From assembly GCA_934699595.1 (NCBI GenBank), contig CAKUWT010000001.1:353033-417032 (forward strand): 64,000 nt of DNA, in the 5' to 3' direction. Positions 31,783 through 33,156 of the stretch are shown piece by piece. The notes beneath the pieces are model-generated. The model saw only the letters and a program-made list of their open reading frames with translations. It did no database searches and was not told the origin of the DNA. Each line of letters starts with the position of its first letter. Within the stretch, counting starts at the first letter, position 1. Source of the DNA: an uncultured Patescibacteria group bacterium. GTDB lineage: Bacteria > Patescibacteriota > Minisyncoccia > Phycocordibacterales > UBA918. Position numbers and translations under genes: made by a program.

Positions 31783-33156
31783 ATGTCTCGTATGAACCAA
31801 AATATCGAAAACTTGCGCCACACTGAGCTGGCGCTGCCCCAGGGTGGTAAAGTGGTCGTCTTAGACCCAGGCGCTACTCTGACAGCAGAAATGACCGCCA
31901 TGCTCCAAGCGCTGCACAGTCGCTCCATCGGCGGCATCAACGACCATCTTAGAGTGCTGGCTGAACGCGGCGCTGCTAAGTTTATGTCGAGTTACTATGT
32001 CGGCTACGGTCACAAATCTATTGGTGACTGCGGTACGGCCATTGTCTTTGTGGAAGGTATTTCCATGCTGGCCGCTAAAGCTCTACAGGATTCTCCGCTC
32101 TACAACGGCCAAGAATCTTCGACACGTTACATCGACTACGCAGCGCAGCCCCTGCTGAATCCCCTGGGAACAGCTGCTGGAAAAGATGTTCTTGAACGCT
32201 GGCGGACTTTCTATTTGCAAGCGGTGTCAGAAATGAAAGCGACATTGCCCACTCGTCATCCGCGTCAACCAGAAGAAAAAGAGACGGTCTACGATAAAGC
32301 TATCACGGCCAGAGCTTTCGATATCTGTCGCGGGTTCTTGCCTGCGGGTGCGGCCACCAACGTCGCCTGGAGTACTACTCTCCGTCAGTTTGCCGACCGG
32401 ATTCTCCAACTACGCCACCATCCGCTGGCAGAAGTTCGCGATATCGCTACTGTGCTCGAAGGCGCCCTCCTGGCAGCCTATCCCAACTCTTTCAACCAGG
32501 AGAAGAAACGCTACGACAAAACCGAAGCGTACCTAGCGGAAGCTGCGAAGCACTACTACTTTCATGACCCGAACATCACCGCTGCCAAACTGGTTCGAGA
32601 CGGAGTGGATCATGAGGGACTAGCAGCTTATCGGGGTCTTTTGCTCAGCCTGCCGCAAAAAACTGAGTTGCCTAAGTGGCTTGGGGCTTACGGTGAAGTG
32701 GGACTAGCTTTTCCACTCGACTTCGGCTCATTCCGCGACCTGCAGCGGCACCGAGCCCTTAATCAACGCATGCCACTTCTAACTGCTGAGCTTGGTTTTG
32801 CGGACTGGTATTTGGAGGAACTCACCCCGGAACTACGGACCGCAGCCCTAGCTTTGCTGACTGAGCAAAAGGAGCGTGTCGCTAACTTAGCAACCACTCC
32901 AGAAATTGCTCAGTACTACCAACCGATGGGCTACCGTGTCAGTAACCTGTTGTCTGGGGACCTGCCTGCACTTGTCTATATGCTGGAACTACGTAGCGCC
33001 AGTACTGTGCACCCCACCTTGGTAAAAGTGGTGCAAGAACTCGGTCAACTCCTCATTGAGCAGTACGCCGATCTCGGTCTCACCCTTCACCTAGCTACAG
33101 ACGGTGGCCGTTTTGACGTCAAGCGTGGTCTGCAAGATATTGTCTTACAGACATAA
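31783..33156 (+). CDS. thyX: FAD-dependent thymidylate synthase ThyX, 457-aa tandem-duplicated (pseudo-dimeric) form
   Basis: First half has the ThyX blocks H..G.TAIVF and YNGQESSTRY (the S.RY part of the ThyX motif) and ICRGFLPAGAATNVAWSTTLRQFADRILQLR (= ARxVLP..T..W..N.RSL.NFLNLR). Second half has FRDLQRHRALNQ (the RHR part) and LPALVYMLELRSASTVHP. Confidence 0.7.
   Translation: MSRMNQNIENLRHTELALPQGGKVVVLDPGATLTAEMTAMLQALHSRSIGGINDHLRVLAERGAAKFMSSYYVGYGHKSIGDCGTAIVFVEGISMLAAKALQDSPLYNGQESSTRYIDYAAQPLLNPLGTAAGKDVLERWRTFYLQAVSEMKATLPTRHPRQPEEKETVYDKAITARAFDICRGFLPAGAATNVAWSTTLRQFADRILQLRHHPLAEVRDIATVLEGALLAAYPNSFNQEKKRYDKTEAYLAEAAKHYYFHDPNITAAKLVRDGVDHEGLAAYRGLLLSLPQKTELPKWLGAYGEVGLAFPLDFGSFRDLQRHRALNQRMPLLTAELGFADWYLEELTPELRTAALALLTEQKERVANLATTPEIAQYYQPMGYRVSNLLSGDLPALVYMLELRSASTVHPTLVKVVQELGQLLIEQYADLGLTLHLATDGGRFDVKRGLQDIVLQT

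Follow-up and report, generated by a model that had tools for sequence, protein, structure and literature searches.

A two-domain ThyX of Patescibacteria with predicted active-site residues split between its halves

Two ThyX domains in one chain

We analysed a 64-kb stretch of contig CAKUWT010000001.1 from an uncultured Patescibacteria group bacterium, hereafter the window. It contains a gene that a first-pass annotation had proposed to be a tandem duplication of thyX, the gene for flavin-dependent thymidylate synthase (FDTS), with the enzyme's motif divided between the two copies. The open reading frame (ORF) was confirmed, and we find that its product combines two ThyX domains, between which the residues of the predicted active site are distributed. 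Residue numbers below are those of the 457-amino-acid (aa) window protein, and the subunit sets named in the list are defined in the next section.

31783..33156, forward strand: two-domain (tandem) thyX, an ORF of 457 aa plus stop; Pfam Thy1 E = 3.9e-15
31840..32499, forward strand: N-terminal ThyX domain, approximately residues 20-239, with the subunit-B and subunit-C residue sets and without the RHR triplet
32500..33153, forward strand: C-terminal ThyX domain, strongly diverged, residues 240-457, with the subunit-A residue set only

As expected for two copies, the whole protein matched Pfam Thy1 (PF02511) in two stretches, at 56.6 bits against a gathering cutoff of 24.8. Scanned alone, the N half matched clearly (E = 1.9e-11, 44.5 bits, residues 59-228) and the C half weakly (E = 0.032, model positions 113-185). 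The N-half family profile aligned with Mycobacterium tuberculosis ThyX residues 65-230 (E = 1e-7), and hhalign placed the N half on Thermotoga maritima ThyX (TM0449) over 196 columns (E = 4e-5). When the C halves of 31 family members were scanned alone, 19 matched Thy1 (best E = 1.9e-6) and no other family recurred. Local hhalign alignment of T. maritima ThyX, using a query checked to be identical to PDB entries 1kq4/1o26, with the C-half profile covered 186 columns (E = 8.8e-5) and set RHR on RHR and R174 on R404; global hhalign of TM0449 and the C half failed to align the two. Profiles were required for these comparisons, as a phmmer search of PDB sequences with the single protein found no ThyX.

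Structure predictions gave a similar picture. An AlphaFold model of the C half alone had a predicted local distance difference test score (pLDDT) of 91.8 and its PDB matches were all to ThyX structures (best 4fzb, E = 8e-8; 1kq4 at a root-mean-square deviation of 4.4 Å), the ThyX-fold protein PolB (4p5a, E = 7.9e-6) being among the matches. The full-length model (pLDDT 93.9, predicted TM-score (pTM) 0.91) likewise retrieved only ThyX with Foldseek (best 3hzg, E = 1e-6, target-normalised TM-score 0.64), and its confidence values indicate a fixed packing of the two domains. We rejected an unrelated C-terminal domain, given the ThyX fold and Thy1 profile matches of the C half, and a pseudogene, given the strong constraint across the family.

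Pfam and fold thus place the protein in the ThyX superfamily. It departs from canonical ThyX in two features, the score against the thyX equivalog model and the presence of a complete motif within one domain. BLASTP found no similarity between the N half and the C half, and the duplication is visible only through ThyX profiles and structure, not by self-comparison.

Division of active-site residues between the halves

Canonical ThyX, of ~220-250 aa, is homotetrameric; its four sites are identical, and the entire RHRx7S motif is present in every domain. That these sites are built from different subunits, as the first-pass annotation had stated, is documented for M. tuberculosis ThyX, where subunit A contributes the RHR and Arg199, subunit B contributes Ser71 and Arg190, which bind the phosphates of flavin adenine dinucleotide (FAD), and subunit C contributes Arg87, Gln103 (through its backbone), Ser105, Arg107 and Tyr108 (PMC6514825). 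In T. maritima ThyX, His53 lies on the third monomer (PMC11940539). We located the equivalents of these three sets in the window protein and counted their conservation over 253, later 375, full-length relatives, down to ~33% identity; percentages below refer to the 375.

Subunit-A set (T. maritima R78-H79-R80, R174; M. tuberculosis R95-H96-R97, R199): C half, R322-H323-R324 and R404
Subunit-B set (T. maritima H53, T55, R165; M. tuberculosis H69, S71, R190): N half, H77, S79 and R201 (93%)
Subunit-C set (T. maritima E86, S88, R90, Y91; M. tuberculosis Q103, S105, R107, Y108): N half, E111, S113, R115 and Y116

The corresponding stretches of the gene are as follows.

32011..32019, forward strand: H77-K78-S79, equivalent to T. 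maritima H53/T55 and M. tuberculosis H69/S71; H77 98%, S79 100%
32089..32097, forward strand: D103-S104-P105, the degenerate RHR position of the N half, aligned to the RHR of M. tuberculosis and T. maritima ThyX
32113..32130, forward strand: E111-S112-S113-T114-R115-Y116, the retained predicted loop for catalysis and binding of deoxyuridine monophosphate (dUMP), equivalent to T. maritima E86, S88, R90, Y91; subunit-C role
32329..32331, forward strand: R183 (97%) of the N half, equivalent to T. maritima R147; its C-half counterpart is Q377 (98%)
32734..32754, forward strand: R318-D319-L320-Q321-R322-H323-R324, the RHR with its upstream Arg, equivalent to T. maritima R74, R78, H79, R80
32992..33012, forward strand: R404...H410 (LELRSASTVH), the equivalent of the uracil-binding Arg (T. 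maritima R174, M. tuberculosis R199) and a conserved His
33124..33129, forward strand: R448-G449, a family-specific invariant pair in the C-terminal tail; R448 99%, G449 98%

In the C half the RHR is kept (R322, H323, R324), as is the L.LR....H block, and the Ser and the R-Y pair of the motif are lost (T334, E336, L337), all as first described. R318, D319, R322 and R324 are each found in 100% of sequences, H323 in 86% (Gln in 13%), R404 in 100% and H410 in 99%. The positions of the subunit-C set have drifted in this half (L332 81%, T334 67%, E336 and L337 variable), and so have those of the subunit-B set (Q292 variable, T294 57%, P395 76%).

The N half has the opposite pattern. Here E111 (99%), S113 (100%), R115 (100%) and Y116 (97%) are retained, and H77 and S79 correspond to the flavin-stacking His and the FAD-phosphate Ser of the subunit-B role (PMC6514825, PMC11940539). 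The earlier description of this half was right that RHR is lost and S..RY kept, but our alignment puts D103-S104-P105 in place of the triplet, not Q-D-S. Of these three residues D103 is conserved (91%), S104 and P105 being variable, and the counterpart of R404 in this half, R211, is only 65% conserved.

Neither half thus holds a complete RHRx7S followed by R-Y: the N half reads D103-S104-P105...S113-T-R115-Y116 and the C half R322-H323-R324...T334-A-E336-L337, and in these alignments the full ThyX motif exists only as the sum of both. The complementary degeneration suggested for the two copies is borne out by conservation of 86-100% over the 375 sequences, and the pattern recurs in a jumbo-phage copy and in a subgroup of 520-540 aa. 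As judged from sequence comparison, the complementary split of the predicted catalytic residues is real and family-wide.

Two further features of the protein concern its conserved positions. The C-terminal tail (residues 443-457; 33109-33153) was modelled at pLDDT 82-91 in the full-length model and at ~55 in the C-half-only model; confident modelling only when the N half is present suggests that the tail packs against that half or sits in a shared pocket. Codon 290 (32650-32652) is CTG, encoding Leu, where 97% of the 375 relatives have Arg. A single base separates it from CGG. Lys, His or Leu is found at this position in a few other members, and the Leu is the sole departure of the window protein from residues conserved in ≥93% of the family.

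Gene neighbourhood, distribution and relatives

The genes and features flanking thyX in the window are listed below.

29296..30558, reverse strand: glyA, serine hydroxymethyltransferase, a source of methylenetetrahydrofolate (CH2-THF); Pfam SHMT E = 7.8e-150
30594..31016, reverse strand: dut, dUTPase; TIGR00576 139 bits against a cutoff of 102.55; overlaps tmk by 4 nt
31013..31657, reverse strand: tmk, kinase of deoxythymidine monophosphate (dTMP); Pfam Thymidylate_kin E = 2.9e-24; TIGR00041 97 bits against a cutoff of 83.25
33182..33206, forward strand: terminator-like hairpin 26 nt past the thyX stop, with an 11-bp stem including 9 G-C pairs, then ATTTTTAT
33639..34748, reverse strand: deoxycytidine triphosphate (dCTP) deaminase-like gene (dcd), two-domain (DCD_N and DCD_C), 369 aa; PF06559 E = 6e-40, PF22569 E = 8.5e-36

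Gene order and strands confirmed that the tmk-dut-glyA operon is divergent from thyX. The first-pass annotation had also placed thyX upstream of dcd; the dcd-like gene is instead convergent with it. This gene scored 260 bits against NF005734, below the cutoff of 283. It comprises two dUTPase-fold halves, PF22769 matching twice, and is thus, right beside thyX, a second internally duplicated form of a nucleotide enzyme that is usually homo-oligomeric. For the Dictyostelium Dcd2 clade, most relatives are reported to come from Chloroflexi and the Candidate Phyla Radiation (CPR) (PMC10733785). We rejected the possibility of hidden RNA genes in the 482-bp gap 3' of thyX, as no RNA family or tRNA was detected in the adjoining gaps. 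No thyA, in agreement with the earlier reading, and no folA or second thyX was found within the 64-kb window.

Neighbouring genes were counted up to 8 kb from the gene in 80 species-level genomes that have it, the best 80 of at least 593 matching loci. The two-domain thyX was accompanied by glyA in 33 of the 80, by dut in 31, by tmk in 19 and by dcd in 16, in varying order and orientation; the window, with divergent glyA, dut and tmk and convergent dcd, shows the same association with dTMP-pathway genes. In addition, four metagenomic proteins of 623-635 aa (P0447, P0470, P0493 and P0505) carry an N-terminal ComEB-type deoxycytidine monophosphate (dCMP) deaminase (residues ~10-140) followed by a complete two-domain ThyX, which in P0447 (residues 180-622) is 41% identical to the window protein. 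Since dCMP deaminase makes dUMP, these fusions tie the family to dUMP as a substrate, and such three-domain proteins would form a single-chain route from dCMP through dUMP to dTMP. The conserved neighbourhood and the fusions support the predicted role of the two-domain ThyX in dTMP synthesis, and with it the suggestion that this gene encodes a thymidylate synthase of the organism.

Other genes adjoin thyX in individual genomes. In a Candidatus Dojkabacteria metagenome-assembled genome, a 92-aa ORF directly follows the two-domain thyX (locus L027, 9363-9641, forward strand) and resembles Escherichia coli ThyA over the C-terminal 60 residues only (43% identity, E = 9e-10); apparently it is what is left of a thyA displaced by thyX. 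A homolog of folA, which encodes dihydrofolate reductase, adjoins the gene in two Patescibacteria genomes (L023, 1707-2168, forward strand; L080, 7354-7842, reverse strand), with 37-42% identity to E. coli FolA. This adjacency is unexpected because ThyX makes no dihydrofolate.

The family numbers more than 3,226 proteins at 90% clustering and forms 487 clusters at 50% identity (E < 1e-30), nearly all of them of 430-500 aa; judged by these sequences it is large and under strong constraint. Among the best 80 of the at least 593 matching loci in the species-level genome collection, labels were almost exclusively of Patescibacteria type (Paceibacteria, Kaiserbacteria, Moraniibacteriota), and in Patescibacteria (CPR) thymidylate synthase seems usually to take the two-domain form. 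The source annotations read 'FAD-dependent thymidylate synthase', 'thymidylate synthase ThyX' or 'hypothetical protein'.

All named relatives that we recovered were from Patescibacteria or phages. Jumbo Vibrio phages encode full-length homologs (33% identity), of which ORF269 of Vibrio phage BONAISHI (L084, 5947-7389) has the same split residue pattern; another full-length homolog is encoded by Microcystis phage LMM01 (BFVD, TM-score 0.71). BFVD entries A0A6B7EUB9 and A0A7D4 are phage full-length two-domain ThyX proteins, and a further two-domain ThyX lies on a 130-kb phage-like metagenomic contig (L081, 6001-7575) with HNH, SbcC-like, 5'-3' exonuclease and DCD genes. Several of the phage records are annotated merely as 'hypothetical' or 'thymidilate synthase-like'.

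Both halves share their fold with the canonical single-domain ThyX/FDTS proteins (TM0449, 1O26; Rv2754c, 2AF6/3GWC; PBCV-1 A674R, 2CFA/4FZB). The likeness extends to the Pfam family, the metabolic context and the presence, somewhere in the chain, of every named residue that contacts FAD or dUMP. Unlike these proteins, the window protein is a 457-aa fused chain with its motif split over two domains and with two complete sites expected per four domains, and it falls far below the TIGR02170 equivalog cutoff. PolB, a uridine monophosphate (UMP)/dUMP methylase from Streptomyces cacaoi (4P5A), also shares the ThyX fold, but it is a single-domain protein from an antibiotic biosynthesis context, whereas the window gene lies in a dTMP-synthesis context.

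The literature that we searched on fused or tandem ThyX yielded one sentence, in which a 'duplicated', uncharacterised ThyX was remarked in Chloroflexi (Valas and Bourne, 2009; PMC3224940). By its description this is the same kind of architecture, with two ThyX domains per polypeptide; the remark comes without residue analysis and makes no mention of complementary loss or of a link to Patescibacteria or phages (PMC3224940). The ThyX of Chlamydia trachomatis has served as an active enzyme in inhibitor screens (PMC3498832). When we sought the duplicated Chloroflexi and long Chlamydia proteins through cluster names, encoding contigs and homolog searches, only Patescibacteria, phage-like or unnamed records were returned. 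The long Chlamydia ThyX has ~529 aa, roughly double the usual length. Probes with relatives of 520-550 aa returned no records with Chlamydia names, and its likeness to the window protein, which is one of length, is a lead only. We set aside the names ThyX1 and ThyX2, which denote eukaryotic clades and not a domain architecture (PMC10733785). No description of the complementary split, of the predicted loss of half the sites or of the dominance of the two-domain form in Patescibacteria was found in the searchable literature. The chemistry is a known one, and the architecture had already come into view in 2009; what is unusual is the division of subunit roles between the halves.

Beyond thyX and its neighbours, a 196-aa ORF between dcd and rplK (34835-35425, reverse strand) had no Pfam match at E ≤ 1 and was found at 0 of the 80 related loci by tblastn (E ≤ 1e-8). 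GC skew was positive at ~44000-50000 of the window (+0.21 at 46-48 kb) and negative over nearly all of the remainder, and GC content dipped to 0.39 at 42-44 kb.

A predicted pseudo-tetramer and its alternatives

We propose that the gene encodes an active flavin-dependent thymidylate synthase that works as a dimer of fused chains with two sites, a reading to which, from sequences and models, we assign a probability of about 0.72. After a tandem duplication of the ThyX domain, the two copies would have lost active-site residues in complementary fashion. In the resulting enzyme the C half would provide the RHR, contacting the FAD phosphates, ribityl chain and flavin as well as dUMP, and R404 for the uracil. 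The N half would serve twice, once in the 'subunit C' role with the E-x-S-x-R-Y loop, which would bind dUMP and cover the reacting atoms, and once in the 'subunit B' role, with H77, S79 and R201 stacking on the flavin and binding the FAD phosphates.

With the A set confined to the C half and both other sets to the N half, a complete site would take one C half and two different N halves, and hence two chains; a single chain would not suffice. Two chains would assemble into a pseudo-tetramer of four ThyX domains with 222 symmetry and the C halves on a diagonal. If the C halves occupied positions A and D, leaving B and C to the N halves, two sites would be complete and two degenerate, each chain binding one FAD and one dUMP. 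It is a sound inference from the residue split that this enzyme would have half as many active sites as canonical ThyX, two in place of four. Reduced nicotinamide adenine dinucleotide phosphate (NADPH) would reduce the FAD, and the methylene group of CH2-THF, the glyA product, would pass through flavin N5 to dUMP; dUMP would be supplied by dcd and dut, and the resulting dTMP phosphorylated by the product of the adjacent tmk.

Several observations weigh against this reading. The alignment of the C half to canonical ThyX is modest (hhalign probability 60%), and single-residue equivalences in this half that lie beyond the RHR and LxLR blocks are uncertain. The two halves show negligible similarity to each other (hhalign of the half-profiles, E = 0.009, probability 4.5%), so that the claim of a tandem repeat stands on ThyX profiles and structure and is not upheld by direct alignment. 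Against TIGR02170, the thyX equivalog model, the protein reached 23.3 bits, over residues 177-238 only, with a cutoff of 87.9. The N half retains R183, H213 and often R211, so the 'dead' sites may keep some ligand binding. Finally, the absence of thyA applies to the 64-kb window, one part of the genome.

The missed equivalog cutoff could also mean that the ThyX fold here serves another chemistry or substrate, for example as a UMP/dUMP methylase like PolB or in producing modified pyrimidines. The match of the C-half model to PolB (4p5a, E = 7.9e-6) is in keeping with this, as are the family-specific invariants R47, D180, Y343 and R448, which have no canonical ThyX counterpart. Modified bases would also be plausible in the jumbo Vibrio phages and Microcystis phage LMM01, which encode homologs, and some phage thymidylate-synthase homologs make modified pyrimidines. 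However, for each canonical residue named as contacting dUMP or uracil, one of the halves has an invariant equivalent (S113, R115, Y116, R322, R404), cellular copies lie beside dut, tmk, glyA and dcd or are fused to the dUMP-making dCMP deaminase, and these small genomes require a source of dTMP, with no thyA nearby. We regard a different chemistry as quite improbable.

The compact and confident full-length model (pTM 0.91) might instead point to a working monomer, in which one N and one C half form a pseudo-dimer with a single site and the subunit-B function is dispensable or otherwise supplied; the RHR of the C half and the S-x-R-Y loop of the N half could in principle face each other within the chain. 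Yet H77, S79 and R201 are conserved at 93-100% in the N half, and their equivalents come from a third subunit in canonical ThyX. Because a chain has one N half, the monomer leaves this conservation unexplained, and there is little chance that it is correct. A purely structural or regulatory role for the C half, with catalysis by N-half domains alone, is very improbable: the C half is far more diverged and the significant Pfam match of the window protein comes from the N half only, but the N half lacks the RHR, which holds FAD in every characterised ThyX, and the 86-100% conservation of the RHR, R318, R404 and H410 in the C half is unexpected for a scaffold.

Within the proposed dimer of fused chains, the degenerate sites could have been rebuilt into a new binding site from R47, D103, D180, R290, Y343 and R448-G449, which might be dedicated to NADPH or folate or might bind a nucleotide allosterically. 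We consider this unlikely. If true, it would make for an asymmetric ThyX with separate catalytic and reductive or regulatory pockets, and would bear on the long-standing question of where NADPH binds in ThyX.

ThyX is an antibacterial drug target, and inhibitors designed against the symmetric tetramer may act differently on the fused form. Because the sites of canonical ThyX are built from three identical subunits, the contributions of the subunits are hard to separate. The fusion would assign each subunit role to a different domain, such that single mutations would affect one role each, and this clean division gives a specific, testable prediction. It would also be an example of subfunctionalisation, in which complementary loss after tandem duplication turned a homo-oligomer into an obligate pseudo-hetero-oligomer. 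The form is found in jumbo phages as well as in Patescibacteria, an uncultured radiation of bacteria that is very large. Pathway reconstruction with the strict thyX equivalog model may overlook two-domain ThyX.

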